In this document: positions 1,905 to 41,949 of the stretch, in pieces | Numbering within the stretch: the first letter of the stretch is position 1 | How the letters are laid out: each line of letters starts with the position of its first letter | From: a virus | Lineage: Duplodnaviria; Heunggongvirae; Uroviricota; Caudoviricetes | DNA length: 64,000 bases | Direction: 5' to 3' (one strand) | IMG/VR virus record: IMGVR_UViG_3300031555_003397 | Notes under the pieces: model-generated | Databases searched by the model: none | The model's input: the letters and a program-made list of their open reading frames with translations, nothing else | What the model was told of the DNA's origin: nothing | Program-made: the position numbers and the translations under genes

Positions 1905-2402
1905 ATGGAAATTTGGAGAGATATAGAACAATATCCAGGATATTAGGTTTCAAACCAAGGTTAGATAAAAAGTTTTAAGCAATCAAAAGAAGGACGCATT
2001 TTAAAACCCAAGATTAGTGCTGGATATGCTGGAATTGATTTTCGCAAAGATGGAAAAAGCTACTATGGTTTAGTGCATCGTATTGTATTGTCTACTTTCG
2101 CGCCCGTAGAAGGATGGGAAACTTTAACCGTTAATCATATAGATGGTAATTGTTTGAATAATAATTTAGAAAATTTGGAATGGATGACTCAATCTGAAAA
2201 TACTAAATATTCTAGAGAAATTTTAAAAACGGGTAATGCTGCTTAGAAAGTACATATAATTAAATTAAACGGAGAAGAATTATTCTATGATACAGTAACT
2301 GCTGCGGCAAAGGAAATGGGAGTGGCGAAAGGAACGATATCTAGATGGGCCAACAAACAAAGAAGTTATGAAGGCAAATATAAGCTGGTGGAATACGTGT
2401 AA
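1905..2402 (+). CDS. HNH homing endonuclease (HNH_3/AP2-like); 3 in-frame TAG
   Basis: RBS ggagg before ATG 1905. Motifs IEQYPGY*VSNQG*IKS and VNHIDGN..NN..NLEW.T..EN. Stop TAA. Confidence 0.55.
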
Positions 2403-2772
2403 TGCGTTTCCACCAGTTTTTTATTTCTGTGTTTTTTGTTTCCAGGGCCGGGAGATTTGGATTGTGCGATTTGTCAAAATTCCCAAAACCCCACCCCCAT
2501 CTTTGTGCATTTTGACGAACGAAAAAATGCAAGTTTTTCTTGACTTCCGTGCTATGCTGTGATAGTATATAGACACAGGGGAACACAAGACACCAACGCA
2601 AGTTTCCCTCGGTCGATAGCAAAACTAAATAAATGGTTTCAACCCTTGTGGGGTCGTGCGGTATCCGTTGTGCGTGTATGTGTCGGATAGTTGCGGATGG
2701 TAGCAAGGCAGTTTCACCGATAAAAAGCTAGAGTTTAGACGCATAAAAGCATACACAAAAAACAATTTAATT

Positions 2773-3348
2773 TTGAAAGGATTTGATTTTATGACTATTA
2801 AAGAAAGACGCATTTCCGCTATTCAGTATGAGCTGAGCAATACCACTAATCAAGGCGCAAGGGGTCGAGCTTTCGAGCTGATGTGCGCCCGTGAAAAGAG
2901 CCGCAAAGTCGCTGTTGCTAAGCAAGGCAAGACCGATGTGTCTGTCCGTGTGGTTGTCAATGGCAAAGCCAAGTACCTGCCCGCTGAGTGCAAGACCAAT
3001 GGCGGACGAGTCAATGACCTGCTTGACGGCTCTAACAAGTCCCGCTTCGTGATTTACAAGTTGGACTTCGTTCAGAAGCACAAGGCAACCAAGAAAGCGG
3101 AAGCATGGGAAGAGATCCGCTCCACCCCTGCCCTGTTGATTCCTACTAACCTGTTCACCGCTATGCTGATTGATTGCAACGCAATCAAGGAAGTCCGCCA
3201 CAATGGCGAGGTAGACGGCATTGCAATCCAGCCCAGCTCCAAGCGGATGTTTGAGCGACTGATTGCCTATGCTGAGAACTTCCCCGATATGGAATTCTCT
3301 CCCGAAGCTGATTACGAGGACTGGATGTTCGAGGGTCTGGAGCTGTAA
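2773..3348 (+). CDS. Hypothetical early protein (191 aa)
   Basis: Intact ORF with RBS aaagga. Long leader from promoter near 2530-2565. Confidence 0.5.
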   Translation: MKGFDFMTIKERRISAIQYELSNTTNQGARGRAFELMCAREKSRKVAVAKQGKTDVSVRVVVNGKAKYLPAECKTNGGRVNDLLDGSNKSRFVIYKLDFVQKHKATKKAEAWEEIRSTPALLIPTNLFTAMLIDCNAIKEVRHNGEVDGIAIQPSSKRMFERLIAYAENFPDMEFSPEADYEDWMFEGLEL

Positions 3349-3985: not shown

Positions 3986-4318
3986 ATGTATAAAGTTTAT
4001 AGTTACAGAGAAAACATGAAAAGTGGTGAGGTTATTTGCCACTGTCAGCGCAATGCTCCCACTATTGAGGAAGCAAGAGAACACAAAAGACGTTTATCCA
4101 ATCGTGGTAATGGTACTGTAAAATATATTATCATTCATGAAAGTTCTGTTTCCATGCTTATGGAAAGAGTTGCCCGCAGACAGGAAGAAATCTATCCTCA
4201 TAGTGAGGTGGTCAAAGTACAGGAAAGACTTAGACTTTTGAGAGAAAAGACAAGTTCTGGAAAAAGATGCGTACAAGATGCCGCAATTTTTGCAAAAACT
4301 GGCAAATGGGTGAGATAA
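3986..4318 (+). CDS. Hypothetical protein (110 aa)
   Basis: RBS gaaaggag, ATG 3986, stop TAA. Confidence 0.45.
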   Translation: MYKVYSYRENMKSGEVICHCQRNAPTIEEAREHKRRLSNRGNGTVKYIIIHESSVSMLMERVARRQEEIYPHSEVVKVQERLRLLREKTSSGKRCVQDAAIFAKTGKWVR

Positions 4319-4344
4319 TCACCCATTTGTTTTCTCAATTTTTA

Positions 4345-4411
4345 TTTAGATGTGTTACGTCTAAATGAAGCGAAAAAACTTCTTGCAATTTCCTAATTCA
4401 TGTGATATACT
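4345..4411 (+). promoter_or_regulatory. Palindrome + sigma70 promoter unit (TTTAGATGTGTTACGTCTAAA; -35 TTGCAA, -10 TATACT)
   Basis: Member of a 10-copy family. The palindrome is centred about 62 bp upstream of the predicted transcription start. Confidence 0.5.
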
Positions 4412-4458
4412 AATTTTAGAAAGGGAAAGGAAAATCCCAAAAACCAGAAAGGAAAAAT

Positions 4459-4662
4459 ATGAAAATTTTTGTCTACAAGGATCAAATCGTCTCTTTGGAA
4501 AATTTTGCAAAAATTTCTCCAATATCTAGCACTGTTTTGGAAGTTCGTTATCACAACAGTGAGAGACAAACAATTTATTTTGATAAAGCGAAAGACCTTA
4601 CCGAGGGAGTAGCAAAAATTGTAGAAATACTGCGCGAACCCATTCAGGAAAAGTCTATCTAA
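4459..4662 (+). CDS. Hypothetical small protein (67 aa)
   Basis: Palindrome+promoter unit 4345-4411 upstream, RBS aaagga. Confidence 0.4.
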   Translation: MKIFVYKDQIVSLENFAKISPISSTVLEVRYHNSERQTIYFDKAKDLTEGVAKIVEILREPIQEKSI

Positions 4663-4712
4663 TATTTGACAGATTCGGCGCAGAAATGCGCCGTTTCCTT
4701 TCTAGAATTTTA

Positions 4713-4778
4713 TTTAGACGTGTTCCGTCTAAATCATGGGAAATTAGTTATTGACTTTTTGGAATTTATTGTGTATAA
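4713..4778 (+). promoter_or_regulatory. Palindrome + promoter unit (-35 TTGACT, extended -10 TGTGTATAAT)
   Basis: TTTAGACGTGTTCCGTCTAAA, TTGACT at 4750-4755, TATAAT at 4773-4778. Confidence 0.55.
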
Positions 4779-4942
4779 TACAGGTACAAGGTCGGTTGAG
4801 AGTAACGGACACGGGCATGGCAACTCTCCCCTTGCTGCCGTGGGTGATAGGGAGGCAGTCGGAAGCAGGCACTCCGCCCAAACCTGGCACCAATTGCCAC
4901 CATAATTTTAACTAAGGTGGAGCGTTTTCTGGTAACGAATAA

Positions 4943-5010
4943 CCAGGTTCTATTTAGACGTATCACGTCTAAATTTTCTGAAAAATATTCTTGACTTTTC
5001 CGCACGTCCA
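4943..5010 (+). promoter_or_regulatory. Palindrome + promoter unit
   Basis: TTTAGACGTATCACGTCTAAA, TTGACT-17-TACAAT. Confidence 0.55.
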
Positions 5011-5051
5011 TGGTACAATGTACTTACAGAAAACGAAAGGGGAATACCAAT

Positions 5052-5378
5052 ATGAAAAAGAATACTATCCATTTAATCAGTGTCATCCTCGCCCTCATCT
5101 TCGTTGCCTTTGGCGCCTATACTTTTGGTTGGACTCAAGGCGAATCTTTCGACCCAACCAGCACATACACCTCACCTGCACGGGTGATAGAAGTTGATAA
5201 ATCTACTGGCTGGGTCACATTCGTTGACTGGGCTGGTGAAGCATGGTGTATCCGTGGTGAAGGTTATGTGGTTGACCAGTTGGTCATTATTACATTCAAT
5301 GACAACAATACTGAATCCATTTATGATGATTTGATTGTTGACGTTGATTGTCTGGTGGATATTGAGGAAGTCGAATGA
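5052..5378 (+). CDS. Hypothetical membrane-anchored protein (108 aa)
   Basis: RBS aaagggga. Has an N-terminal hydrophobic helix. Confidence 0.45.
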   Translation: MKKNTIHLISVILALIFVAFGAYTFGWTQGESFDPTSTYTSPARVIEVDKSTGWVTFVDWAGEAWCIRGEGYVVDQLVIITFNDNNTESIYDDLIVDVDCLVDIEEVE

Positions 5379-5395
5379 CTTCCTCTTTTTATTTG

Positions 5396-5462
5396 TTTAG
5401 ACGTATTACGTCTAAACAAGGATGATTTTGTTCTTGACTTTCGATTAGGTCTATGGTATTAT
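5396..5462 (+). promoter_or_regulatory. Palindrome + promoter unit
   Basis: TTTAGACGTATTACGTCTAAA, TTGACT-17-TATTAT. Confidence 0.55.
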
Positions 5463-5508
5463 ATAGGTGTCAAGGGGAGATACCCAAAGACAGAAAGGAA
5501 GTAAAATT

Positions 5509-5907
5509 ATGAGAGTGTCCAAAAGAATTGCAGAGTTTGTGCGCCAGGAAGTAGAAAAGGCAATCCCTTACGGTGCGCCCACCGAGGAATACAATACCGC
5601 TAGAGCGGCTATGATTCAGACTACAGAGGAACTGAATGAAAAGATAAATGAATATGCGGCTCAGCTGATTGCTGGTGTCACCCACCTGCCCGAAGGTTTC
5701 AAGATTTACCACAATTCCAACTGCTACCTGTCCCACTCGGACTGGAACAGCTCCTTGTCCGTGGCTCGTAATGAGCATGAAAAGAAAGTGCGTGACCAGC
5801 GCAAGAAAGCGGTTGACTCCATTCTCATCAGTCTGGAACTCGGCGCAACCAAAGCAGAACTCGCAACCATTATGAAAGAAGTTATCGCAGAAGTTACTGC
5901 GGAATAA
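5509..5907 (+). CDS. Hypothetical protein (132 aa)
   Basis: RBS gaaaggaag. Leader starts GGUGUCAAGGGGAG. Confidence 0.45.
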   Translation: MRVSKRIAEFVRQEVEKAIPYGAPTEEYNTARAAMIQTTEELNEKINEYAAQLIAGVTHLPEGFKIYHNSNCYLSHSDWNSSLSVARNEHEKKVRDQRKKAVDSILISLELGATKAELATIMKEVIAEVTAE

Positions 5908-5951
5908 TATAGGAGGGGAGGAAACTCCCCTTCCTTTCTTTTTGTAGAATA

Positions 5952-6018
5952 TTTAGACGTATTGCGTCTAAACATTTTCAAAATAAAACTTGATTTTTTA
6001 GAAAATATATGATATTAT
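5952..6018 (+). promoter_or_regulatory. Palindrome + promoter unit
   Basis: TTTAGACGTATTGCGTCTAAA, TTGATT-17-TATTAT. Confidence 0.55.
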
Positions 6019-6039
6019 ATTGTTACAGAAAAGAAAGGA

Positions 6040-6498
6040 ATGATTCAAATGAAAAACGTTTATATCAATTTTGACATGGATGGAACGATTGCAGATTTCT
6101 ACAATGTTCCGCACTGGCTCGAAGCAATTCGCGCATTTGATACACATCCTTATGAGGTGGCGCGCCCTATGTTCCATCGCACATGGATGACCCGACAGCT
6201 AAACCGCTTACAGGGTTGTGGTTATAAGCTGAGAATCATCACCTGGACTTCTAAAGAGTCTACACCGGAATTTGATGAAGCAACCAAGACTGCAAAGCTG
6301 AATTGGCTGGCAACTAATCTCCCGGCTGTACATTGGGATGAAATTCATGTTGTTCCCTACGGCACTCCCAAACATCTGGTTGGTGACGAACCTGGCGGAA
6401 TCCTGTTTGATGATAATGAAGCTGTCCGCCACGACTGGGGCGATGGCGCATACGATGAGCAGGAGCTGTTCACAATTCTGAAAAGACTTGGCCTTTAA
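6040..6498 (+). CDS. HAD-superfamily phosphatase (5-prime-nucleotidase-like)
   Basis: DMDGT motif I (NFDMDGTIADF). The start could instead be ATG 6049. Confidence 0.55.
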   Translation: MIQMKNVYINFDMDGTIADFYNVPHWLEAIRAFDTHPYEVARPMFHRTWMTRQLNRLQGCGYKLRIITWTSKESTPEFDEATKTAKLNWLATNLPAVHWDEIHVVPYGTPKHLVGDEPGGILFDDNEAVRHDWGDGAYDEQELFTILKRLGL

Positions 6499-6514
6499 GG
6501 TCAAGTTCTTTTCA

Positions 6515-6581
6515 TTTAGACGTATTACGTCTAAATCATCCGAAAATAGTTCTTGCATTTTTGGAAAATCTATGATATTAT
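6515..6581 (+). promoter_or_regulatory. Palindrome + promoter unit
   Basis: TTTAGACGTATTACGTCTAAA, TTGCAT-17-TATTAT. A second promoter sits at 6730-6765 (TTGACA..TATAAT). Confidence 0.55.
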
Positions 6582-6837
6582 ATTGGTGTCAAGGGGAGGG
6601 GAACCAACCCAAGTAGGCTCTGCGGTGCGTGATGTTGTCCACGATGGTCGAACCTTTTTGTCAGATGCTGTAACTGTCCTACCTTTTCGGCAGACAAAAT
6701 TTTTCAAAAATTATTTTTGAAAAACCCCTTGACAACCAGTACAATATGTGCTATAATGATAAAGCAGTGAGGGACAGGAACCCTCTGCTAAATAAAATGG
6801 GTGGCGAACCTACCGCCGAATATGAAAGGAGTCTATT

Positions 6838-7230
6838 ATGACTAACCGTGAGTTTTTTGTGAATGTGTCCAAGAATATCGTTGGCGAAGCCGAAGTTGCA
6901 CACGCCCTGGAGCAGATTGCGAAGCTGGATGCAACCAACGCCAAGCGTGCTGAACAGCAGTCCGCCAAGTCCAAGGCGAACGAACCCCTCAAGATTTCCA
7001 TTCTGAACCTGCTGACCGAAAAGGGTGGCATGACCTCTCCCGACATTGCCGAAGCTCTCAACAAGCAGGGCGTGACCACCGCTGATGGCGATGAAGTTTC
7101 CACCTCCAAGGCTTCCTCCATGTGTCGCCAGATGGTCGAAGATGGTCGCCTGACCGTGACCGAAATCAAGATTCCCAAGAAGGGCAAGATGAAGCAGTAC
7201 GCCGTGGCAACCACGGCTGATGCCGAATGA
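6838..7230 (+). CDS. Hypothetical early protein, paralog A (130 aa)
   Basis: Paralogous to 9850-10230: MT(N/K)REFFV(N/K)VS at the start, KASS(M/L)CR..V..EIKIPKKG..K.Y at the C-terminus. Confidence 0.5.
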   Translation: MTNREFFVNVSKNIVGEAEVAHALEQIAKLDATNAKRAEQQSAKSKANEPLKISILNLLTEKGGMTSPDIAEALNKQGVTTADGDEVSTSKASSMCRQMVEDGRLTVTEIKIPKKGKMKQYAVATTADAE

Positions 7231-7276
7231 TAAAATGGGGCGAGAGAAATCTCGCCCTTTTTCTCAAAAATTTTTA

Positions 7277-7343
7277 TTTAGACGTCTTGCGTCTAAACAA
7301 TAAACAAAAATAATTTGACAAAAATAAAATTTTATGATATAAT
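7277..7343 (+). promoter_or_regulatory. Palindrome + promoter unit
   Basis: TTTAGACGTCTTGCGTCTAAA, TTGACA-17-TATAAT. Confidence 0.6.
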
Positions 7344-7376
7344 TTTTATAGAAAATAAAAGAAAGGAAAAATAAAA

Positions 7377-7808
7377 ATGAAAATTTATCTTGCTTCTCCC
7401 TTCTTTAATATCAATGAAATCCTCATGTACGAAGGGGCAATTGAAGGTCTGCGCGCCAAGGGTTATGATGTTTATGTTCCTCGTGAGCATACAATCGAAG
7501 GTGCCTGGCAGATGCCGAATAAAACCTGGGCTGGCTATGTATTCGATGAAGATGTGCGCGCCATCAATGACTGTGATGTAGTTCTCGTTATGAACCATGG
7601 TATGTACTCCGACAGCGGCACAGCTTGGGAAGCTGGCTATGCTATGGCCGCTGGGAAAAGAGTTGTACAAATTCTTTGCGGCGAACCCAACACTACATAT
7701 TCTATGATGATGATTTCCAGCGCAGATAAAGTTGTAGAATATTACAACGTCGAAAACTGGGAAGAAGTCAGCGCAGAAACTTCTCTCGATAAGGTCATTC
7801 AGAAATGA
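7377..7808 (+). CDS. Nucleoside 2-deoxyribosyltransferase family protein
   Basis: YLASPFF..., DSGTAWEAGYA, RVVQI. This is the PF05014-like pattern. Confidence 0.6.
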   Translation: MKIYLASPFFNINEILMYEGAIEGLRAKGYDVYVPREHTIEGAWQMPNKTWAGYVFDEDVRAINDCDVVLVMNHGMYSDSGTAWEAGYAMAAGKRVVQILCGEPNTTYSMMMISSADKVVEYYNVENWEEVSAETSLDKVIQK

Positions 7809-7818
7809 ATGACTTTTA

Positions 7819-7885
7819 CTTAGACGTAACACGTCTAAATTTTCTGGAATTTTCTATTGACAAATAAAAAATTATATGTTAAAAT
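7819..7885 (+). promoter_or_regulatory. Palindrome + promoter unit
   Basis: TTAGACGTAACACGTCTAAA, TTGACA-17-TAAAAT. Confidence 0.55.
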
Positions 7886-7920
7886 ATCCATGTAAATCAG
7901 AAAGGAAAGGATGATTACAG

Positions 7921-8259
7921 ATGGCAAAGTTGACTAGGAAGCAACTTGACGAAGAAATCAAGTTGCGCTTTTTGGAGGGTGTTTCCGAGCATCTCGAAAA
8001 TTGCGGTGAGGAAGTTCTGCGCGTAAAGTCCAACGAAATCGCCCTGCCTGTCGTTGACAGTGACGGTGAGGAACGCTGGCTTGTGCTGACCTTCAAAGTC
8101 CCTACTGGCGAGCGTGGCGGCGACCCCTATGACGGCTACTCCATGGCCGAGGACTACAAAATGAGCCTTGAGAAAAAGGCGGCAAAGGCGGCTGAAAAGG
8201 AAGCCGAAGCCGCAAAGAAAAAAGCAAAGCAGGAAGCAAAAAAGGAGGCGGGGCAGTAA
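7921..8259 (+). CDS. Hypothetical protein with K/A/E-rich C-terminal tail
   Basis: Intact ORF, no closer identification. Confidence 0.4.
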   Translation: MAKLTRKQLDEEIKLRFLEGVSEHLENCGEEVLRVKSNEIALPVVDSDGEERWLVLTFKVPTGERGGDPYDGYSMAEDYKMSLEKKAAKAAEKEAEAAKKKAKQEAKKEAGQ

Positions 8260-8277
8260 TGCTCCGCTTTTCCTATA

Positions 8278-8354
8278 TTTAGACGTATTACGCCTAAATA
8301 AGTTCTGGAATTTTTGGAAAATGTATTGACTTTTGTTTTCATATATGGTATTAT
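8278..8354 (+). promoter_or_regulatory. Palindrome + promoter unit
   Basis: TTTAGACGTATTACGCCTAAA, TTGACT-17-TATTAT. Confidence 0.55.
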
Positions 8355-8416
8355 ATCCATGTCAGGTGAGGGAAACGAAGGTACACCCCACCAATAAAGA
8401 AAGGATTTGATTTATT

Positions 8417-9325
8417 ATGAAAGCAAGCGTTAGTGTGAAGTTTGACCGTCGGCGCAAGTATTATCTTGTGTTGGATTGCGAATCCGCAACCCTGCCCTGC
8501 GCGGGCAACCTGCCGGCAGAAGCAAAGAAAAATGTGGCGATTGCAAAACCGCTCATTTATGACCTGGGCTGGAAAATTATCGACAAAAAGGGTAGAGTCT
8601 ACAGCCGGAAAAATTTTCTGATTTCTGAGATCTTCTCCGTCCCTTCCATTTTCGATACCGCCTATTATGCTTCCAAACGTCCTTTATATATCGAGAAGCT
8701 GAACCGGGGCGAAATCACTTTGACCGACTGGAAAACCGCTTCCGCTGAACTGGTGGCGGACATGGAGCACGTCGAAGCTGTCGGCGCCTATAACTCCATG
8801 TTTGACTTCAAGAAAGCAATCCCCTTTACTGAGTTGTATATCAATCAGCTTTACTCCCCCGACTTCCATGACTGGCTGAGAAATCAGAATCAGATTTGCG
8901 AAAAAATCGCAAACGGTTTTGGCTCCTCCAATTCCAAAGAGTTTGACCCCGATGTTTTCCGCTTCCGTGGCAAAGTTTATCCCCTGTTTGACCTCTGGGG
9001 CCTGTCCTGTAAGTACATCATGGATAATGATGAATATAAGGCGACTTGCCTGCGCAACGGATGGCAGACCGAAAGCGGAAAATATTTCAAGACCTCTGCC
9101 GAAACCGCTTACAGATTCGCCTCTGGTAAACTGGACTTTGATGAAGCCCACACCGCCATTGACGATGCCGACATCGAAAGTGAGATTTTCGCCTTGATTG
9201 TCAAGAAAGCCAAGAATCAGGTTGAAATGGGAATTGAGTATTTCCCCTTCCGTATCCTCGGCACTGTTAAAAAGTTTGTATATCAGCATCCCGAATTTGC
9301 TGATTACATCGACTGTGATTTCTAA
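8417..9325 (+). CDS. DEDDh 3-prime-5-prime exonuclease (DnaQ-like)
   Basis: Exo I LVLDCESAT, Exo II YNSMFDF, Exo III HTAIDDADIESEIF. Confidence 0.6.
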   Translation: MKASVSVKFDRRRKYYLVLDCESATLPCAGNLPAEAKKNVAIAKPLIYDLGWKIIDKKGRVYSRKNFLISEIFSVPSIFDTAYYASKRPLYIEKLNRGEITLTDWKTASAELVADMEHVEAVGAYNSMFDFKKAIPFTELYINQLYSPDFHDWLRNQNQICEKIANGFGSSNSKEFDPDVFRFRGKVYPLFDLWGLSCKYIMDNDEYKATCLRNGWQTESGKYFKTSAETAYRFASGKLDFDEAHTAIDDADIESEIFALIVKKAKNQVEMGIEYFPFRILGTVKKFVYQHPEFADYIDCDF

Positions 9326-9367
9326 GAGAAGTGTCCGCCACTGGCGGACATTTTTCATGGGCAGTTA

Positions 9368-9388
9368 TTTAGACGTGTTGCGTCTAAA
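9368..9388 (+). promoter_or_regulatory. Palindrome TTTAGACGTGTTGCGTCTAAA, followed by a cluster of TTGACA boxes
   Basis: Tenth copy. TTGACA(T/A) repeats at 9445-9600. Confidence 0.45.
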
Positions 9389-9639
9389 TTTAATTTTTTC
9401 AAATTTTCTTTGTGCAATTTACACAATTTTCCTTTAGGTTGACATAACAAGTTGACAAATAATTATGGAATTTTATGCGGGCCAAAATTTGACATCACTT
9501 AAAATTTGACTTGTCCGGCACGGCACCACTGTCGGTGTCAAGTTTCCACCCCTGTCAAATTTCCAAAGCAGCTACAAACCAGCTACATCAGCTGCGCCAG
9601 CTGCGTTTTGTCAAATTTTCATAGCAGCTGCTAAACTTT

Positions 9640-9790
9640 GAAAAAGCTGGAAATTTAAGGTATAATATATGTGTAAGGTTGAGAGAGATATAACAGAAAA
9701 AGCTGTAAAATCTTTTGGGAAATCTTACTTGCCGAAATTTGAAAAAGCTACAAATTTCTGGTATAATATATATAGAAAGTAAGAGAGATG
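9640..9790 (+). promoter_or_regulatory. Tandem duplicated promoters (two copies of ..AAATTT..GGTATAATATAT..AGAGAGAT..)
   Basis: Two 55-bp near-repeats upstream of 9850-10230. Confidence 0.45.
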
Positions 9791-9849
9791 TAACTCTTAA
9801 CTTATAAACATTTTATGGGTCGCGACCAACGCGAGAAGGAGAAACGCAA

Positions 9850-10230
9850 ATGACTAAGCGTGAATTTTTTGTTAAGGTATCCGAAGGCGAAATGACCGAG
9901 GAAATGAAGGACTTTGCTGTAGAGCAGCTGATCAAGATGGATGCTCAGCTGGCAGCTCGTAAGGGCAAGGTATCCGAGAAGGAACAGGCTAAGCGTGATG
10001 CAAATGAAGCACTGGCACGTCGTGTCGCTGCTGAAATTCTGGGCGCTGAAGCCAAGACTGCAACTGATGTTGCCGCTGAGCTGACCGAGATGCTGGGCGA
10101 GGAAATCAAGGTTCAGAAGGCAAGCTCCCTGTGCCGTAAGGCTGTTGAGCTGGGCCTGGCTGTCCAGACTGAGGTTAAGATTCCCAAGAAGGGAACTCAG
10201 AAAGCTTACACCGCTGTTGCGGCTGAGTGA
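9850..10230 (+). CDS. Hypothetical early protein, paralog B (126 aa)
   Basis: Paralog of 6838-7230. Tandem promoters at 9640-9790. Confidence 0.5.
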   Translation: MTKREFFVKVSEGEMTEEMKDFAVEQLIKMDAQLAARKGKVSEKEQAKRDANEALARRVAAEILGAEAKTATDVAAELTEMLGEEIKVQKASSLCRKAVELGLAVQTEVKIPKKGTQKAYTAVAAE

Positions 10231-11095: not shown

Positions 11096-11251
11096 ATGAC
11101 TAATAAAAAATATCAAGTTCAAACCTATGTAGACTGCGCAACCAAAGAAAAAATTGACCAACTTTGCGCCAAATATCAAGAAAGTGTTAGTTCAATTATG
11201 CGGCGCGCAATCATCAAATTCTTAGAACAGGAGGACAAAAATAATGCTTGA
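11096..11251 (+). CDS. Ribbon-helix-helix (CopG/Arc-like) DNA-binding protein (51 aa)
   Basis: RBS ggagg. RHH-like motif SVSSIMRRAIIKFL. Confidence 0.45.
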   Translation: MTNKKYQVQTYVDCATKEKIDQLCAKYQESVSSIMRRAIIKFLEQEDKNNA

Positions 11252-35184: not shown

Positions 35185-35320
35185 TAAATCACCTCTAATT
35201 CTAAGTAAAACAAACCAAAAAAAAGTAGAGGAAAATCATGCGATTTTCCCCTACGGTATATAAAAACTGCCTGTAATCTCATGGAGGTGGCGATGAGATT
35301 CTTAAGGCAGAATTTTCTGG

Positions 35321-35392
35321 TACAGGATAAGGGAGTCGAACCCCTATCTAACGGTTCGTAGCCGCTTACTCTCTCCATTGAGCTAATCCTGT
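35321..35392 (-). tRNA. tRNA-Arg(ACG)
   Basis: Acceptor ACAGGAT/ATCCTGT, T-loop TTCGACT, anticodon loop CTACGAA, CCA encoded. Confidence 0.7.
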
Positions 35393-35541
35393 ATATATGC
35401 AGTTTTCTCGCCATTCAAGCGGTATTCCAGGCATACGGTAACCCTCTCATTCACCACGATTACGTAGCTTACTTTGACTCCTGCAAACCGTGGTAGTGGC
35501 TCCATATGAACTGCCTGGACAACGCATATTTCATCGCCTGG

Positions 35542-35616
35542 TATACCCGAGTGGATTCGAACCACTGACCGACTGCTTAGAAGGCAGTTGCTGCTGTCCT
35601 ACTGAGCTACGGGTAC
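35542..35616 (-). tRNA. tRNA-Arg(TCT)
   Basis: Anticodon stem ACTGC/GCAGT, loop CTTCTAA, T-loop TTCGAAT. Confidence 0.65.
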
Positions 35617-35785
35617 ATATACCAGTTTAACCCTCGCGAAACCATACACGTTTTGACCTCAACCGTCGCACTCAAAATCGCATCCAACTGGCAAGTCTTG
35701 TGGAATGGTATCCCGCAAACCATTCCTGCGGCGCTCTAGCTCTCAGTGGCGCCGTCATTTTGAGAGCAGAAGCGGGATTTTTTGG

Positions 35786-35858
35786 TGCATCGTGAGGGAT
35801 TTGAACCCCCAACCTTGACATTAAGAGTGTCCTACTCTACCAATTAAGTTAACGATGC
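35786..35858 (-). tRNA. tRNA-Lys(CTT)
   Basis: Acceptor GCATCGT/ACGATGC, loop CTCTTAA. Confidence 0.6.
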
Positions 35859-36350
35859 AAATTGTTTATCAAAAGAATAATCTTCCATTAACCGAATACC
35901 AACTTTTTGATTATTTTTAGGAGGTATAGTCCTTATAAATAAAGTAATGGGAATATCTTCGTTATCTGGAATAAATAAACCACACCAATCATTTTCTAAA
36001 CAATAAAGGAAAAATATGTCTACTTCATTTTTAGAATAATGATTACTAGACCAAGTACCTTTCGTATAATTAGTAGTCTTTGTGGCAAATTCCATTTTAC
36101 CATCTTTAATATTTGCAGTACTTTTAACTTGTACTCGATATAACTTATTATCTTTTTCAATAATTAAATCATAACGAACATTATTAGTTAAAGGTTTAGA
36201 AACTGGAATTTGTTTCTTTGTGAATAATGCAATAGCTTGTGCCTCTCCTATATCTCCAATAGTAACTGTATTTAGCATTTTATCATCTCCTTGTATTATT
36301 AAGTAAAAGTAATAAATATTAAATACAGAAACTTCGGAAAACTTTGTCAA
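35844..36350 (-). CDS. PD-(D/E)XK-family putative homing endonuclease (paralog 1)
   Basis: YDLIIEKDNKLYRVQVKST. Paralogous to 45589-46002 and 46602-47009. Confidence 0.45.
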   Translation of the reverse strand: MTKFSEVSVFNIYYFYLIIQGDDKMLNTVTIGDIGEAQAIALFTKKQIPVSKPLTNNVRYDLIIEKDNKLYRVQVKSTANIKDGKMEFATKTTNYTKGTWSSNHYSKNEVDIFFLYCLENDWCGLFIPDNEDIPITLFIRTIPPKNNQKVGIRLMEDYSFDKQFASLT

Positions 36351-36365
36351 GTGGTCTCAGTTTGG

Positions 36366-36437
36366 AGGCTTAGGCGGAATTCGAATCCACGACCTCTCGC
36401 TTACCAAGCGAGTGCACTACCACTGTGCTACTAAGCC
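36366..36437 (-). tRNA. tRNA-Thr(GGT)
   Basis: Acceptor GGCTTAG/CTAAGCC, loop TTGGTAA. Confidence 0.7.
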
Positions 36438-36487
36438 ATTTAGAAAAATTGCTCCGAAACCTTTCGGCGCCGGAGCCGGAGCCTTGG

Positions 36488-36560
36488 TGAAGACGGTGGG
36501 ATTCGAACCCACACTGGATAGGGCCTAAACCTATTGCCTCTTCCGTTGGGCTACGTCTCC
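36488..36560 (-). tRNA. Type-I tRNA with Leu anticodon UAG (short variable arm)
   Basis: Anticodon stem ATAGG/CCTAT, loop TTTAGGC, variable arm CCAGT, discriminator A. Confidence 0.55.
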
Positions 36561-36697
36561 ATTTATAATTCAAGGTAAAGCCGTTTTCTAAACCCTTGAC
36601 CTGCTATCCGCCAAAATAACAGGTTTTAGCGTGTGATTCTTTTTCTGTTGGCGCAGTCACACGTCATTTGTCCTATCACTCGGACTCGGCGTACTGG

Positions 36698-36770
36698 TGA
36701 TTCCATGGAGGTTCGAACTCCAATTTCAGCCTTGAGAGGGCCGTTTCCTAACCGATTAGAAGATGGAACC
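36698..36770 (-). tRNA. tRNA-Glu(CTC)
   Basis: D-stem TTCT/GGAA, loop CTCTCAA, T-arm TGGAG-TTCGAAC-CTCCA. Confidence 0.55.
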
Positions 36771-36772
36771 AT

Positions 36773-37078
36773 TTACATTATACAATCCCTAATAATTCGT
36801 TGTTTAACAAGAGTGTCATATTTATCAAATTCATCCCAGTAAACTGCATAGGTGCCACCAGGAAGAACTAATTCACCAGAATGGTCATAGCACTTACCTT
36901 TATATTCTACAAAGAAATGTCCATAAATCGCATCGTAAACAATCCGACTTTCTGGAAATCTATCTTTAAGAATCAAGGCAAAGTAATAACAATTGCCATC
37001 GCGCCAATTACAATCTTTTGAAAATCTTCGGTTAATGAACTCAATCACTTCATCTTGCATTTTAACTCTCCGCAACAA
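36773..37078 (-). CDS. Hypothetical protein
   Basis: ORF. Confidence 0.4.
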   Translation of the reverse strand: MLRRVKMQDEVIEFINRRFSKDCNWRDGNCYYFALILKDRFPESRIVYDAIYGHFFVEYKGKCYDHSGELVLPGGTYAVYWDEFDKYDTLVKQRIIRDCIM

Positions 37079-37286
37079 TACCAGTTCTTCGATAAATCAT
37101 CTTTGCAAGCATATCAGAATGTTTTAACTCTTCGGCAATGATTTTACGAACTTCTTGCTTTTCGCGTTCACTAAGTTCATTTTCAAAACAATGAAGAATC
37201 TTATAATAACCTTGACGAGCTTCTGCTTCATCAGCAATATTTTCTTCAAGTAATTGACACAATGAAAAATCAACCTAAGGCATTAA
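37062..37286 (-). CDS. Small hypothetical protein; TAG as third codon
   Basis: RBS ggagtg plus ATG 37286, then CCT TAG GTT, then the track ORF. Confidence 0.35.
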
Positions 37287-37299
37287 ATCACTCCTATAA

Positions 37300-37330
37300 A
37301 TAAAAAGCGGTAGCGGAATTCTATTGGCCG
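37300..37330 (-). terminator. GC hairpin plus T-run (minus strand) before the RBS of 37062-37286
   Basis: GCGGCCAATAGAATTCCGCTACCGC TTTTTATTT. Confidence 0.35.
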
Positions 37331-37607
37331 CAATTTGTTTGCTTAGTCCGCGGAGAGGTACCGGTGTCATTAACCTCAATTTGTTGTTTACCATCCGGCT
37401 CGCTTTCGCTCAACTTATTTATAAGTCATAGGAGTTGTCAACCTATTAGTAAGTTTACTTCGCTTCCTTATACCGCGTTTTCCGCTAAGCCACATACACC
37501 GCGCGAGGTAACCAACGATAACTCCTCTGGCGGGAAGTGGTAGTTTAACTTACAAATCCGTGTTAACGCGCTTAGGGCCACATCCTAAGAATTTGAAACG
37601 TGGTTGG

Positions 37608-37677
37608 GTGCACGGCTGGGGTCGAACCCAGATTACTAGGTAATGAGTCTAGCGTCCTACCTTTAGACGACCCTGCA
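37608..37677 (-). tRNA. tRNA-Met/Ile2(CAT) copy 1
   Basis: Anticodon stem CTAGA/CCTAG, loop CTCATTA (T at position 37), T-arm CTGGG-TTCGACC-CCCAG. Confidence 0.5.
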
Positions 37678-37683
37678 ATATGG

Positions 37684-37754
37684 TTGCGAGCGAACGATTC
37701 GAACGTTGTCTTCTGGTAATGAGCCAGATGAGCTACCTTTGCTCCACCCTCGCA
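37684..37754 (-). tRNA. tRNA-Met/Ile2(CAT) copy 2
   Basis: D-stem GAGC/GCTC, anticodon stem TCTGG/CCAGA, loop CTCATTA. Confidence 0.55.
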
Positions 37755-37890
37755 ATATTCAACTGAATCCTCTCCTAACAGCGTACAATGCCTTACGCAC
37801 TTGGGTGTTGCCCTCTTTCGAGGTCGCAGGGTTTCTGGTTTGAGAGGACTTACTACAAACCCTTTTTCAGCTTCGCCTTCAAGGAAAACT

Positions 37891-38020
37891 AGATGCATTT
37901 GGTGTTATTTACGCGCGTCTACCAATTCCGCCACACTCTTCATTTGGGAAGAGTGATGGGATTCGAACCCACAATGTACGTGCTCCTCAAGCATTAACTA
38001 AATAATTGCTGTATGCACCT
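37891..38020 (-). ncRNA. Circularly permuted tRNA-like RNA 2 (YrlA / Y-RNA-like architecture)
   Basis: T-arm GTGGG-TTCGAAT-CCCAT, then CACTCTT-C-CCA-AATG-AAGAGTG as a closed acceptor with CCA, then D-arm TG-GCGG-AATTGGTAGA-CGCG. About 10-bp stem between the ends (AGGTGCAT/ATGCATCT). Confidence 0.5.
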
Positions 38021-38063
38021 AAATGGAATACAAAAACAGTTTTGTCTGTTTCTTAGGAAAGGA

Positions 38064-38198
38064 GCTAGATGCGTTTTGTGTTTTAAAACTCTACCACTTG
38101 AGCTACTCAGCGGAGGTGTCTCCGTCAAGATGGGACTCGAACCCATAACCCTCTGATTTTAAGTCAGTTAACAGTATAGTTGCTGCACGCATCTAAAA
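38064..38198 (-). ncRNA. Circularly permuted tRNA-like RNA 1 (YrlA / Y-RNA-like architecture)
   Basis: Order on the minus strand: 8-bp terminal stem, T-arm ATGGG-TTCGAGT-CCCAT, 10-bp closed acceptor-like hairpin with ACAC loop, D-arm TAGCTCAAGTGGTAGAG, stem return. Own consensus promoter at 38225-38262. Confidence 0.5.
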
Positions 38199-38224
38199 TA
38201 ATTGACAGTTTTTCTTCATTCATT

Positions 38225-38262
38225 TTGTAAATATATTATACATTAAATTTACATAAATTTCA
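38225..38262 (-). promoter_or_regulatory. Conserved promoter copy driving permuted tRNA-like RNA 1
   Basis: Minus strand TTGAAA-17-TATAAT. Confidence 0.5.
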
Positions 38263-38279
38263 AATTTTGGTACCCGAAA

Positions 38280-38897
38280 TTAATAACTCCATCTATATCC
38301 ATAAGCGGTTTTCCGTTTACCTAAACAAACTTCTTGAATATGACTACTTTTTCGTTTACCTAAAAAAGAATAGGCATCAATGATTTTAGGGAAAACTTTA
38401 ATAATTTCTCCCGTATTTTTATCAAGCATTTTTACAATTTTATTTTGCCATTGACCACAATTAGCTTGACGTTGTTGCTTAGTTATTCCACTGTTAGAAA
38501 GAATTAAAGCTATACTTTTATCAGAATATCCAGTAATCTTTTCAATTTCTGAACAATTATATCCTTCAGAATAAAGTTGATTTACTAAATCATAATCCAG
38601 AAAAGGTCTACCATCTCCTCCAATTGTTGCATTATAACCAAATTTAAACGAACCAAAAAATTCAATCCAATATCTTTCTCGCTCATTTAAATTTTCAGTA
38701 GAACATTCCTCAATTTTCTCAATAGAAAAATGTTCAATACCATATTTTATCATTGCATCATATAAAGGGCGTTTTTCATTTCTACTTTTGTTGTAGTCTG
38801 ATAAATGTTCTTTCCATCTACTTTCAATGGTCTTAATGGTCTTTCCAATGTAAATCTTTCCATTTACATCATTAGTAATTTTATAAATGTATGGCAT
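38280..38897 (-). CDS. GIY-YIG homing endonuclease (SegB-like)
   Basis: YIYKITNDVNGKIYIGKT..RWKEH. Confidence 0.65.
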   Translation of the reverse strand: MPYIYKITNDVNGKIYIGKTIKTIESRWKEHLSDYNKSRNEKRPLYDAMIKYGIEHFSIEKIEECSTENLNERERYWIEFFGSFKFGYNATIGGDGRPFLDYDLVNQLYSEGYNCSEIEKITGYSDKSIALILSNSGITKQQRQANCGQWQNKIVKMLDKNTGEIIKVFPKIIDAYSFLGKRKSSHIQEVCLGKRKTAYGYRWSY

Positions 38898-38920
38898 AAT
38901 TAAATACCTCCATATTATTG

Positions 38921-39000
38921 GTAGGGGATATCGGACTTGAACCGATACGAATAACAGTGGTTTTTGAGACCACCCCGTCTACCTATTCCAGCAATCCCCC
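38921..39000 (-). tRNA. tRNA-Leu(CAA) (type II)
   Basis: Anticodon stem GTGGT/ACCAC, loop CTCAAAA, long variable arm. Confidence 0.6.
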
Positions 39001-39345
39001 ATAAGCGTGGGATATTTCTATGTCCGGACTACCCTCCCACCGGGCACCTCTTTCATCCCCGAGGCGGGCTCGTTCTCGTCGAACTAATTTGGACACTAAA
39101 CACCAGCGGTTATGACTCCTATGTACCGCTTTTACTGCTGTGCACGCAGTTGAGGACTAACTTTTCCGGCTACATTTCCTCCCATAGTGTAAGCATCTCG
39201 TCGGATTCGCACCTCTCGGCCAATCCGCAAGTTGAGGAGCAGTAGTTTCCTCTGTAATTTTGTTATCCCAGGGAGAAACATACTAATTACCTGGACCGGA
39301 TTGATTACCGGAACATCGATGTTAAGCCGTGCTAACCACGGTGGT

Positions 39346-39425
39346 GGGCAGGGTGGGTGTCGAGCCCACTACCTTAAAAAGAACGGATTTACAGTCCGCC
39401 GCGTTTGCCGATTCGCTACCTACCC
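39346..39425 (-). tRNA. tRNA-Tyr(GTA) (type II)
   Basis: Acceptor GGGTAGG/CCTGCCC, loop CTGTAAA, long variable arm. Confidence 0.55.
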
Positions 39426-39663: not shown

Positions 39664-39736
39664 TGGAACCGATGGGACTTGAACCCACAACCTTTTCCTT
39701 GCAAGGGAATTGCGCTCCCAATTGCGCCACGGCCCC
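39664..39736 (-). tRNA. tRNA-Ala(TGC)
   Basis: G3-U70 wobble pair present. Loop CTTGCAA. Confidence 0.65.
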
Positions 39737-41288: not shown

Positions 41289-41363
<75 letters not shown>

Positions 41364-41943: not shown

Positions 41944-41949
41944 AAATGA

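Follow-up and report, generated by a model that had tools for sequence, protein, structure and literature searches.

The early region of this phage raises the question of what a 21-bp palindrome, repeated in front of one promoter after another, is for and which protein, if any, reads it. The phage falls among Clostridia-associated gut/rumen phages that distantly resemble Enterococcus myoviruses of about 140 kb, and it looks large and virulent, with 36 tRNA genes. A motif scan of the window (the whole 64 kb stretch of DNA that was analysed) for TTTAGACGT-N3-ACGTCTAAA, allowing at most 3 mismatches, returned exactly the ten copies that an earlier note on this DNA had counted, all inside 4345-9388; the note had proposed such a search for copies at random positions, and none were found elsewhere in the window. 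The chance expectation is 0.06 copies, and 10 was never reached in shuffles. Arms in the window are perfect over 9-10 bp around a 3-nt centre, and the conserved core is TTAGACG-N5-CGTCTAA, with positions 1/21 and 9/13 softer. Judged from sequence, the palindrome is probably a protein operator with two half-sites that is coupled to RNA polymerase.

Promoters and transcription start sites are consensus predictions, with the -10 hexamer set at -12..-7 (Table 1). The end of the palindrome lies exactly 17 bp from the predicted -35 in 8 of the 10 copies, 27 bp in the copy at 8278 and 50 bp in one more, rather than at the roughly 15-25 bp described previously. Relative to the predicted start sites this puts the centres at -63 (eight copies), -73 and -95. 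All nine clear palindrome-linked promoters have a predicted extended -10 (TGn). The palindrome had also been assigned to every early cassette, but the plus-strand promoters at 2540, 6729, 9638 and 9739 have none.

Table 1. Palindrome copies with the terminator hairpins before them and the predicted promoters after them, and two early genes considered as readers.
Feature	Position	Strand	Terminator hairpin before it	Predicted -35	Predicted -10	Palindrome to -35 (bp)	Downstream feature or remark
Palindrome copy 1, TTTAGATGTGTTACGTCTAAA	4345-4365		4303-4337 (+; GC-rich hairpin and T run)	TTGCAA 4383-4388	TATACT 4406-4411	17	
Palindrome copy 2	4713-4733		4676-4703	TTGACT 4751-4756	TATAAT 4774-4779	17	Cassette without obvious ORF, about 4786-4950
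Palindrome copy 3	4953-4973		4928-4952	TTGACT 4991-4996	TACAAT 5014-5019	17	ORF 5052-5378
Palindrome copy 4	5396-5416		5364-5395	TTGACT 5434-5439	TATTAT 5457-5462	17	ORF 5509-5907
Palindrome copy 5	5952-5972		5911-5945	TTGATT 5990-5995	TATTAT 6013-6018	17	5'-3' deoxyribonucleotidase-like gene 6040-6498
Palindrome copy 6	6515-6535		6485-6514	TTGCAT 6553-6558	TATTAT 6576-6581	17	Non-coding leader
Palindrome copy 7	7277-7297		7237-7266	TTGACA 7315-7320	TATAAT 7338-7343	17	Nucleoside 2-deoxyribosyltransferase gene 7377-7808
Palindrome copy 8	7819-7839		7791-7816	TTGACA 7857-7862	TAAAAT 7880-7885	17	Candidate reader gene 7921-8259
Palindrome copy 9, one internal A.C mismatch	8278-8298		8244-8277	TTGACT 8326-8331	TATTAT 8349-8354	27	Spacing one helical turn more; exonuclease-like gene 8417-9325
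Palindrome copy 10	9368-9388		9332-9360	TTGACA 9439-9444	AATTAT 9461-9466	50	Sole nearby promoter, weak
Candidate reader gene	7921-8259	+					112-aa early protein of an uncharacterised family, chosen by co-occurrence only
Winged-helix (wHTH) protein gene	6838-7230	+					PadR/MarR-like C-terminal domain; paralogue at 9850-10230

The earlier note gave an order of stop codon and then palindrome; an intrinsic terminator lies between the two. These terminator hairpins are GC-rich (-9 to -24.5 kcal/mol) and are mostly followed by a T run. Folded as RNA, the palindrome itself gives a weak hairpin of -4 to -10.7 kcal/mol, and most copies have no T tail; in 5 of the 10 the next 8 nt contain at most 2 T. 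This check of hairpin energy and T tracts, also proposed in the earlier note, supports its preference for a dimeric DNA-binding protein site over a terminator, given that a separate and stronger terminator lies just upstream of each copy. Because a canonical terminator precedes every copy, the palindrome would lie mostly outside transcripts. This already weakens the idea that it acts as a nucleic-acid structure, whether as a cruciform in DNA, as a hairpin in RNA (second terminator, RNase III site or stabiliser) or as an N4-like hairpin promoter that serves a phage RNA polymerase, even though the perfect arms fold well for their composition (z of about -6 to -7.5 as DNA) and, of the 7 deviations in the window, 4 would still allow G.U pairing on the plus strand.

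Comparison with related phages was confined to about 10 kb on either side of a marker gene in each. Across 467 copies, each core position (2-8 and 14-20) keeps its base in at least 99%, and a single compensatory pair was seen overall (neither within nor between related phages are the copies behind these and the following counts independent). The arms are invariant inside one phage, while between lineages both switch together, to TTAGACT, TTAGATG, TTAGGTG, TTGGATG, TGGGACG, TTATCTG, CTAACCT or TAATACG, and all of these types keep the 7+5+7 geometry and the placement relative to the promoter. Some genomes mix types (L097, L120 and L122). A joint switch of both arms is also what a folded structure would show, but compensatory changes within the stem are essentially absent, and a within-phage permutation of 1250 copies found no excess complementarity at variable positions 0/22, 1/21, 9/13 and 10/12; positions 1/21 and 10/12 pair less often than chance. 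The hairpins used by the N4 virion RNA polymerase are themselves the promoter and need extrusion. The palindromes described here are similar in being short inverted repeats with a 3-nt centre that are linked to early transcription, but they are followed by a complete sigma-70-type promoter at variable, phased distances and have no pairing selection.

For 1020 unique promoter-linked copies of nine palindrome types from relatives, the distance to -35 falls into discrete classes at about 8, 17.5, 27.5, 39 and 50 bp, with gaps of 5-9 bp (693 copies), 16-20 bp (162), 26-32 bp (73), 36-42 bp (42) and 49-60 bp (about 28). When 499 oriented TTAGACG-type copies were placed relative to inferred start sites, their centres clustered at -54, -63, -73.5, -85 and -96 (Rayleigh R = 0.79 at a period of 10.5-11 bp), and different spacing classes are mixed inside single phages. 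Seen from the promoter, the operator is thus always on the same face of the DNA helix, and the class I position geometry pointed out in the earlier note emerges more strongly than the window alone allowed. Such phasing, at 8 to 50 bp from a sigma-70-type promoter, would be meaningless for an RNA element or a self-contained hairpin promoter, and a structural role is very unlikely. Helical-turn spacing, sequence-conserved arms that switch jointly and the lack of pairing selection argue instead for an operator, and they also back the dimeric site.

A different explanation would dispense with a regulatory reader altogether and make the palindrome the conserved core of a mobile regulatory cassette that is selfish or recombinogenic and is kept uniform by gene conversion and cassette shuffling in a hyperplastic early region. 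Cassettes of this kind, the PeSLs (promoter-early stem-loops), are documented in T4-like phages (PMC2839356, PMC4122927). As with PeSLs, repeated units of terminator and sigma-70 early promoter lie between small early genes in hyperplastic regions, and the units mark the ends of indels or replacements that separate relatives. Units of ~90-110 bp (palindrome, spacer and promoter) are 75-80% identical to each other in several places, blocks of homology with relatives begin or end exactly at palindromes, and two relatives (L065 and L087, the latter the same contig as L055) have an extra cassette of ~570-600 bp inserted at copy 10 (9368) and flanked by two copies. Early gene content also differs strongly between relatives. 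However, gene conversion would homogenise flanks and centre as well, and here invariance is confined to the 7-bp arms, with nearly every copy having its own spacer and its own 3-5 central bases. Recombination also leaves the symmetry of the arms and the helical-turn spacing to -35 unexplained. In addition, the conserved stem-loop of a PeSL is the GC-rich terminator itself (GN-loop-CN) (PMC2839356, PMC4122927), whereas in these phages, which are unrelated to the T4-like ones, a separate AT-rich and sequence-invariant palindrome sits between terminator and promoter and is phased to the promoter. A palindrome without a reader is therefore quite improbable. Shuffling is compatible with the operator as a side effect, not as a replacement: the repeated cassettes would also serve as recombination points for the gain and loss of early genes, likely as a by-product of the operator layout.

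If the palindrome is an operator, its dimeric reader is most likely encoded by the phage. The earlier note had named two candidates, the RHH protein at 11096-11251 and a host factor. Among more than 100 palindrome-bearing loci, homologues of the former are limited to a single related contig (L055, the same contig as L087), and it is not supported as the binder. A site that belongs to a nucleoid protein or transcription factor of the host and is exploited by the phages, with types that reflect different hosts, would agree with the differences between phage lineages that may infect different Clostridia and with the lack of a recognisable DNA-binding fold in the candidate phage protein described below. 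However, a scan of 185,579 species genomes (one per species) for the exact site found no host regulon, since multi-copy matches were only on small phage-like MAG contigs and single matches were at about the chance number (about 9). At least nine specificities among close phages, with some genomes mixing types, would also be unexpected from conserved host regulators, and co-occurrence of the palindromes with a phage gene family is perfect, with joint loss of the two. A host factor is accordingly improbable.

That phage gene family is the one of the 7921-8259 protein, which is present in 48/48 loci with 21-bp palindromes and in 0/16 loci without any shared promoter-upstream palindrome; family and palindromes were lost together in at least three clades nested within the tree. 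On this co-occurrence only, the family is the best candidate for the reader, a tentative assignment, and with about +/-10 kb covered per relative the actual reader gene may lie outside the compared regions. The protein combines an alpha/beta domain at the N-terminus with a C-terminal helix rich in Lys/Glu/Ala. It belongs to no Pfam or PHROG family, and no known DNA-binding fold matches its predicted structure (pLDDT 83). Between the ACG and ACT lineages, no residue of the family changes in step with operator type, and its phylogeny simply follows that of the phages. Among 68 loci retrieved via this protein, only 15 have the 7+5+7 palindrome; in most of the rest the palindromes are short, loosely spaced and of another sequence (CCCGGG and similar), so the family would have to read very different sites. 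The wHTH family was also considered as reader and was set aside, as its promoters systematically lack the palindrome (operator-free in 34/40 cases) and its proteins do not track the palindromes.

The proposed model is that a symmetric dimer reads the double-stranded operator through two identical half-sites (TTAGACG, with about 12 bp between their centres). Each cassette would run from intrinsic terminator to operator, A-tract spacer and near-consensus sigma-A/sigma-70 promoter with extended -10, and the operator centre would be at about -63 in this phage and at -54, -63, -74, -85 or -96 in relatives. Since the operator keeps to one helix face, we infer that the bound protein must communicate with the adjacent RNA polymerase. 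Contact could plausibly be made by alpha C-terminal domains docked on the intervening A-tracts; an A-tract is found at about -44..-40 in the spacers, and spacers of 27/28 bp have two A-tracts 10 bp apart. About 70% of early promoters would in this way form one co-regulated set.

The sign of regulation is less clear, and we lean slightly towards a reader that turns the early promoters down, either as feedback or as early shut-off, with polymerase held in place. This is suggested by core promoters that are near consensus and by the candidate reader gene, which is usually behind an operator-bearing promoter (31/42 cases). The phi29 protein p4 is a small early phage protein that binds inverted repeats upstream of the sigma-A promoters A3 and A2c; through contact with the alpha C-terminal domain it over-stabilises polymerase at strong early promoters and so represses them, and it activates a weak promoter. 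It is a Firmicutes-phage precedent for phase-dependent upstream repression at consensus promoters. However, p4 has few sites in one control region, as opposed to one site for each of nearly all early cassettes here, the site sequence differs, and the candidate protein comes from an unrelated, unannotated family without a fold match.

Activation would use the same operator and differ only in sign: a dimer at -54 + 10n would use the alpha C-terminal domain to recruit host RNA polymerase, as at class I sites, which would favour early phage promoters over host promoters or define a delayed-early class. This is possible but less probable. CRP/FNR class I sites are found at -61.5, -71.5, -82.5 and -92.5. 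Like them, the operator is a dyad-symmetric dimer site that lies upstream of the core promoter without overlap, on one helix face, at positions one turn apart (quantised here over five helical turns) and with room for the alpha C-terminal domain before -35, where the A-tracts would suit docking. Operator-less promoters have twice as many upstream A/T tracts as operator-bearing ones, as if the operator replaced an UP element, and the operator-free promoters of the regulator-like wHTH genes would fit an immediate-early class. However, the series here is -54, -63, -74, -85 and -96 (from inferred start sites), there are 10-30 sites per phage with specificity that differs between lineages, and the reader is probably phage-encoded. 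The core promoters are not defective as at class I sites but near consensus (TTGACA/TTGACT, 17 bp, TGnTATAAT), and their quality is equal with and without the operator, so activation is not needed for promoter recognition. The candidate reader gene is also usually behind an operator-bearing promoter itself, and by the phi29 p4 precedent added upstream contacts at strong promoters repress.

Upstream, non-overlapping and phase-locked sites are the classic anatomy of an activator, and this observation counts against the leaning towards repression.

Other phages also place many operators under one protein. Examples are the conserved inverted repeats of phiC31, the C1 operators of P1 and the stoperators of mycobacteriophages L5/Bxb1, systems that maintain lysogeny; stoperators are asymmetric, orientation-dependent and inside transcription units. 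The likeness is that one phage protein would serve 10-30 near-identical sites across an early region, but the sites in this study are symmetric, upstream of promoters, helically phased and in an apparently virulent phage. Related phages share this layout of palindrome and promoter, with different palindrome sequences.

A search of the 64 kb window with the pattern TTTAGACGT-N3-ACGTCTAAA, allowing three or fewer mismatches, returned exactly 10 copies of the 21-bp palindrome (core TTAGACG-N5-CGTCTAA), all of them in 4345-9388, compared with 0.06 expected from shuffles. This agrees with the ten copies that an earlier note had read in the same interval from the sequence alone. The note had also placed each copy upstream of a -35/-10 unit at a loose spacing; the placement holds, but in 8 of the 10 copies the gap from the palindrome end to the -35 hexamer (TTGACA, TTGACT, TTGCAA, TTGATT or TTGCAT) is exactly 17 bp, and behind the hexamer come a 17-bp spacer and a TGnTATAAT-like extended -10. 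Copy 8278 has a gap of 27 bp, and the sole promoter near copy 9368 is weak and 50 bp off. All promoters and starts are predictions, with the -10 hexamer put at -12 to -7, and relative to starts inferred in this way from consensus the palindrome centres lie at -63 (eight copies), -73 and -95. The repeated unit has the order gene, terminator, palindrome, A-rich spacer, promoter. It is not universal in the early region, as the note had supposed in giving every early cassette a palindrome, since four plus-strand promoters there have none. Some spacers between palindrome and -35 look similar to AATTTTCWGAAAATT, the CodY box of Firmicutes (an example is AATTTTCTGAAAAAT behind copy 4953), although they may simply be UP-element-like A/T tracts.

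Features of the window, by position, and spacing classes of the palindrome among relatives
Feature	Position or gap to -35	Strand	Remark
HNH/NUMOD-like endonuclease ORF	1905-2402	+	three in-frame TAG codons
Promoters without palindrome (operator-less)	2540, 6729, 9638, 9739	+	early region
Leader of first early operon	2575-2790		about 215 nt
Palindrome copies (starts)	4345, 4713, 4953, 5396, 5952, 6515, 7277, 7819, 8278, 9368		21 bp each
Cassettes with no convincing ORF	~4786-4950, ~6585-6695		palindrome-driven
CodY-box-like spacers	4973-4990, 7839-7856
AT-rich perfect palindrome	6700-6724		25 bp
Leader hairpins of winged-helix genes	6799-6817, 9817-9834		just before ribosome-binding site
Winged-helix genes	6838-7230, 9850-10230		paralogues
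Candidate reader gene	7921-8259		112 aa
Exonuclease-like gene	8417-9325
Repeat block	9400-9660		TTGTGCAATTTACACAA at 9410-9426
RHH protein	11096-11251
tRNA genes	35318-51226	-	36 genes
Amber suppressor tRNA	50856-50930		anticodon CTA
GOLLD RNA	39822-40333	-
ROOL RNA	44373-45044	-
drum RNA	49935-50061	-
Spacing class	gap 6-9 bp		majority of copies; centre about -54
Spacing class	gap 16-19 bp		second-largest share; centre about -63
Spacing class	gap 27-28 bp		fewer copies; centre about -73.5
Spacing class	gap 38-41 bp		few copies; centre about -85
Spacing class	gap 49-51 bp		few copies; centre about -96

The exact palindrome is present in 62 stretches of IMG/VR viral contigs, often with 5-13 copies per stretch. 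When one genome per bacterial and archaeal species was scanned, the only multi-copy matches came from small MAG contigs of ruminant and other guts, with bin assignments to Clostridia, Eubacteriales, Acutalibacteraceae and Ruminococcus, while single matches were about as frequent as expected by chance. This indicates that the motif is phage-borne. The same scan gave no sign of a host regulon, and the host factor offered by the earlier note as a possible binder therefore finds no footing. No DNA match to the window was detected among 50,697 deposited phage genomes. Related loci (79 of them) were fetched independently of the motif, via homologues of the exonuclease-like gene, and relatives were viewed in windows of up to about 20 kb. 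Eight further 7+5+7 palindromes occur in multiple copies in related phages, with the arms TTAGACT, TTAGATG (up to 33 copies in 20 kb), TTAGGTG, TTGGATG, TGGGACG, TTATCTG, CTAACCT and TAATACG; detection needed perfect arms of 6 or 7 bp, so other geometries are under-counted in this set. Within a lineage the arms do not vary, and from one lineage to the next both change in concert.

Two readings that dispense with a DNA-binding protein were weighed. One is that the palindrome is an intrinsic terminator. A separate and stronger hairpin (-9 to -24.5 kcal/mol as RNA) lies about 5-15 nt upstream of every copy, in all cases within 50 nt; these upstream hairpins are GC-rich in most cases, mostly with a T run next, and each is the canonical intrinsic terminator of the preceding gene. 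The palindrome stems hold 3-4 GC pairs per 9-10, fold as RNA with only -4 to -10.7 kcal/mol, and have two or fewer T among the next 8 nt in 5 of 10 copies. Folding energies and T-tail scoring thus uphold the view of the earlier note that this is not a terminator, and that reading was rejected because each copy has a stronger terminator upstream, a weak stem and mostly no T tail. The other reading is a structured RNA or DNA hairpin. Since co-change of both arms between lineages is predicted by a hairpin and by a dimeric reader (the protein proposed to bind the palindrome) alike, the two were separated by within-phage permutation of partner bases at variable positions over 131 groups totalling 1250 copies. 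Invariance reaches at least 99% at positions 2-8 and 14-20 across 467 copies; variation is limited to positions 1/21, 9/13 and the centre, with one compensatory pair overall. Complementarity was at or below expectation at 1/21, 9/13 and 10/12 (p=0.06 at 0/22). Because complementarity is not enriched within phages, the two halves vary independently, as expected of two half-sites that are each read separately and not of a stem under selection. The hairpin reading was rejected on these grounds, the stems being invariant and pairing being without selection within phages. Inverted identical half-sites, fixed spacing, invariant arms and a variable centre, as would mark a dimeric-protein operator, were all found on sequence grounds.

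One group of TTAGACG phages (L008, L009, L030, L032, L038 and L061) has a second small inverted repeat between palindrome and promoter, about 20 bp upstream of the -35, with co-varying arms (GTCAC..GTGAC, GTCAT..ATGAC, GTCGT..ACGAC). In its behaviour this repeat is unlike the main palindrome and more like a structure, or like a second operator that is looser. In L023 each full palindrome is followed, before the promoter, by an extra TTAGACGTCAAA, a near-palindromic 12-mer centred on GACGTC.

The distance between palindrome and promoter was examined by orienting each copy by its best downstream sigma-70-type promoter. The gaps to the -35 are sharply quantised in a set of 499 unique TTAGACG-type copies: taking gaps of 14-60 bp and a period of 10.5-11 bp, the Rayleigh R (resultant length) is 0.79, although the copies share descent and these counts overstate independence. 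Several single phages (for example L041, L035, L067, L068 and L043) mix spacing classes, so the pattern is not merely one ancestral spacing copied many times, and among gaps of 29 bp or more a second palindrome lies in between in only a few cases. The eight further palindrome types are likewise upstream of plus-strand promoters at the same quantised gaps, and pooling all types (1020 unique promoter-linked copies) gives the same phasing. Such a face-of-helix rule can be understood only if a factor sits on the duplex DNA and communicates with RNA polymerase. Where the spacer between palindrome and -35 is 17 bp, an A-tract occupies spacer positions 9-13, or about -44 to -40; spacers of 27/28 bp have two A-tracts 10 bp apart. 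The A-tract at this position gives an indirect hint of possible activation through contact with the alpha C-terminal domain. Quantised spacing over five turns is an unusually clean natural demonstration of face-of-helix coupling to RNA polymerase.

Class I activator sites of the CRP/FNR kind have their centre upstream of the -35, on one helix face, at positions one turn apart. The phage centres at -54, -63, -73.5, -85 and -96, on inferred starts, resemble such sites, and the class I position proposed in the earlier note is borne out as geometry, in that the distance distribution describes one helix face in steps of one turn. However, the phage core promoters are near consensus and not suboptimal as at typical class I targets. 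In its mode of working the palindrome resembles a class I or p4-type upstream operator, and in its large copy number it resembles the repressor operators of phiC31, P1 or L5.

PeSL cassettes, known from T4-like phages, conserve a stem-loop that is itself the GC-rich terminator (GN-loop-CN and variants) (PMC4122927). The early region described here shares with PeSL the repeated units of terminator and sigma-70 early promoter in a hyperplastic early region, and the coincidence of indel or replacement boundaries between relatives with the cassettes (PMC2839356, PMC4122927). The difference is that here the terminators vary from copy to copy and the conserved part is a separate AT-rich palindrome downstream of them, before the promoter. 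Units of palindrome, spacer and promoter (~90-110 bp) have 75-80% mutual identity, and terminator plus promoter units occupy 9-10 positions in about 5 kb. A few comparisons with the closest relatives gave BLASTN blocks whose edges fall at palindromes, the left edges at 4711, 5950-5952, 6515 and 9367/9368 and a right edge at 9389. Early gene content differs between relatives, and at the 9368 position two of them, L065 and L087, have one more cassette, ~570-600 bp long and flanked by two palindrome copies.

Two other phage elements were compared and rejected. In an N4-type hairpin promoter the hairpin itself is the promoter, with the start at a fixed short distance and no host-type -35/-10; here a near-consensus -35/-10 follows at 8-50 bp in steps, and pairing is without selection. 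The mycobacteriophage stoperator is asymmetric, has one orientation to transcription and lies inside transcription units, whereas the palindrome is symmetric and is placed after one terminator and before the promoter that follows. Among Firmicutes myoviruses the best-mapped early promoters are those of Kayvirus, whose description includes no such element, and a literature search on the motif string and on comparable early-promoter palindromes returned only primer matches and the PeSL papers, none of which describes this palindrome. The sequences suggest a phase-locked operator regulon of lineage-specific sequence in a large group of uncultivated gut/rumen phages, with a candidate reader that is possibly novel.

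The RHH protein, proposed in the earlier note as binder, was rejected as reader because its sole homologue is in one related contig. The winged-helix family has more in its favour, with a PadR/MarR-like C-terminal domain (model pLDDT 79, Foldseek E about 2e-3), and it is common in TTAGACG phages and conserved in many loci. It was nevertheless set aside because its presence does not track palindromes: the family is missing within +/-10 kb at the TTAGGTG, TTGGATG and TTATCTG loci and at L147, and is present in 15 of 16 palindrome-free loci as well as in MT835855, which is without the palindrome. Promoters in the palindrome-free loci (for example L101, L163 and L086) have TTTGTGCAA-like motifs nearby instead. 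The promoters of the winged-helix genes themselves, a point that at first spoke for the family, are without a palindrome in 34 of 40 cases, compared with a palindrome at the promoter in 78 of 92 cases for three other conserved early genes.

Both winged-helix genes of the window have 5' leaders of about 80-125 nt with a hairpin, GGGT-NNNN-(G)ACCWAC-NNNN, that has counterparts in about 25 loci and whose 4-bp stem co-varies between phages (GGCG/CGCC, CGCG/CGCG, TGCG/CGCA, CGTG/CACG, GACG/CGTC). It has no Rfam match and may be an autoregulatory RNA element. The gene at 6838-7230 is driven by promoter 6729, a 12/12 consensus match, and the AT-rich palindrome TTTTTCAAAAATTATTTTTGAAAAA ends 4 bp before this promoter; similar A/T-rich repeats lie upstream of the promoter of homologues in relatives. 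Downstream of the last 21-bp palindrome, a block with TTGTGCAATTTACACAA and several TTGACA/TGTCAAA and CAGCTGC/AGCTGC repeats is followed by two tandem TTGAAA-N17-TATAAT promoters (9638 and 9739) with near-identical initial transcribed sequences. A similar block is upstream of the homologous gene in L049. The block may serve the winged-helix proteins as an operator array or, alternatively, be a replication origin.

When all plus-strand ORFs were clustered, the 7921-8259 gene and its homologues (the 7921 family) alone were singled out. By HMM the family is in 48 of 48 loci with 21-bp palindromes, in 0 of 16 loci where no palindrome is shared upstream of promoters, and in ~15 further loci with a longer imperfect palindrome (for example TGTAAATTAGA-N12-TCTAATTTACA) at 11 or 22 bp from the -35. 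In the tree of the exonuclease-like protein, clades lacking both family and palindromes are nested at least three times within clades having both. By co-occurrence only, the 7921 family would be the best candidate reader. The protein is modelled as a helix, three strands and a long Lys/Glu/Ala-rich helix (pLDDT 83) and has a conserved PxGxRxGxxYDGY loop; a fold search against PDB and BFVD gave no match beyond one unnamed homologue, and it belongs to no Pfam or PHROG family. Other observations fit the assignment less closely. The family tree follows phage phylogeny, no residues separating the TTAGACG from the TTAGACT lineages were found in the family, and among loci fetched through the protein only 15 of 68 have 7+5+7 palindromes. 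Speaking for it, however, a palindromic hexamer upstream of at least 30% of promoters was seen in 43 of 60 such loci, compared with about 2 of 16 controls; it is often CCCGGG and loosely spaced. Alternatively, the reader could be encoded outside the examined windows. It is conceivable, though on balance doubtful, that the small 7921 protein, without a recognisable fold, is a novel master regulator that runs the early genes of a large uncultivated gut/rumen phage clade by binding the one-face palindrome up to five turns upstream of host-type promoters. The specificity of this regulator-operator pair would have been switched at least nine times by single-base steps (TTAGACG, ACT, ATG, GGTG, TTGGATG, TGGGACG and others), each rewriting 10-30 operators per genome, probably via recombinational spread of terminator-operator-promoter cassettes. 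If true, nature would have supplied a library of orthogonal regulator/operator pairs here, and cis and trans elements would clearly have co-evolved across a whole regulon.

Several carriers of the 7921 family (L166, L167, L170, L171, L187 and others) have GCCCGGGC or GGCCGGCC between the terminator and an A-tract-rich promoter upstream region, at 40-60% of promoters compared with 1-2% in 21-bp-palindrome phages and 7921-negative phages. L187 has GTTAGTC-N2-GACTAAC palindromes at the same place too. Two palindrome types coexist in each of the loci L097, L120 and L122 (TTAGACT plus a few TTAGACG, TTAGATG plus TTGGATG, and TTAGATG plus TTAGGTG), and these loci have 2-3 paralogues of the family; they could be intermediates of a specificity switch or two-reader phages. 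In L092 and L095, phages without 21-bp palindromes and without the family, GGAACAA-N1-TTGTTCC occurs in eight copies per locus and is not promoter-associated.

The direction of regulation was judged from promoter anatomy, which is that of class I activation: the site lies upstream without overlap and keeps its phase over several turns, and an A-tract separates it from the -35. However, the suboptimal core expected of activator-dependent promoters was not found. Operator-bearing promoters have a mean match of 5.5/6 at the -35 and 5.6/6 at the -10, with an extended -10 in 68%. These near-consensus promoters are not weaker than the operator-less ones in the same phages (-35 match 5.48 vs 5.52; -10 match 5.60 vs 5.77), which have twice as many A/T tracts upstream. 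The candidate reader gene is itself behind an operator-bearing promoter in 31 of 42 cases, which suits feedback. At phi29, an extra upstream contact made by p4 at a strong promoter hinders escape and represses. Near-consensus cores, the p4 precedent and the reader gene's own operator together lean towards down-regulation, and coordinated down-regulation or shut-off of early genes would have slightly better than an even chance of being the correct reading.

The early plus-strand genes include a deoxyribonucleotidase, a nucleoside deoxyribosyltransferase, the two paralogous winged-helix proteins and the exonuclease-like protein, for which the closest named relatives come from ~140 kb Enterococcus myoviruses. 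The tRNA genes of the minus strand include an amber suppressor, and the HNH/NUMOD-like ORF has in-frame TAG codons (GY*VSNQG*IKS, NAA*KVH), which suggests that TAG may be read as an amino acid in part of the phage's genes; in-frame TAG is absent from the early cassette genes that were translated. The palindromes give large uncultivated gut/rumen phages with tRNA arrays, apparent TAG recoding and ROOL/GOLLD an early regulon in concrete terms: the operator is defined, its phasing obeys a strict rule, candidate readers are few, and there are at least nine natural specificity variants. Its lineage-specific operators show a whole set of sites changing specificity together. The operator/promoter cassettes could mark early regions in metagenomic phage contigs and, if the reader is identified, could be orthogonal parts for Gram-positive synthetic biology.

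Two palindrome-driven cassettes without a convincing ORF are GC-rich and structured, with 86% (first) and 92% (second) identity in L060. At a cut-off as loose as E<=1, Rfam gave no match for these cassettes or for the first early operon's leader; all are candidate phage small RNAs or leaders. Three structured RNAs lie inside the tRNA array, namely ROOL (296 bits), GOLLD (153 bits, just above the gathering score) and drum.
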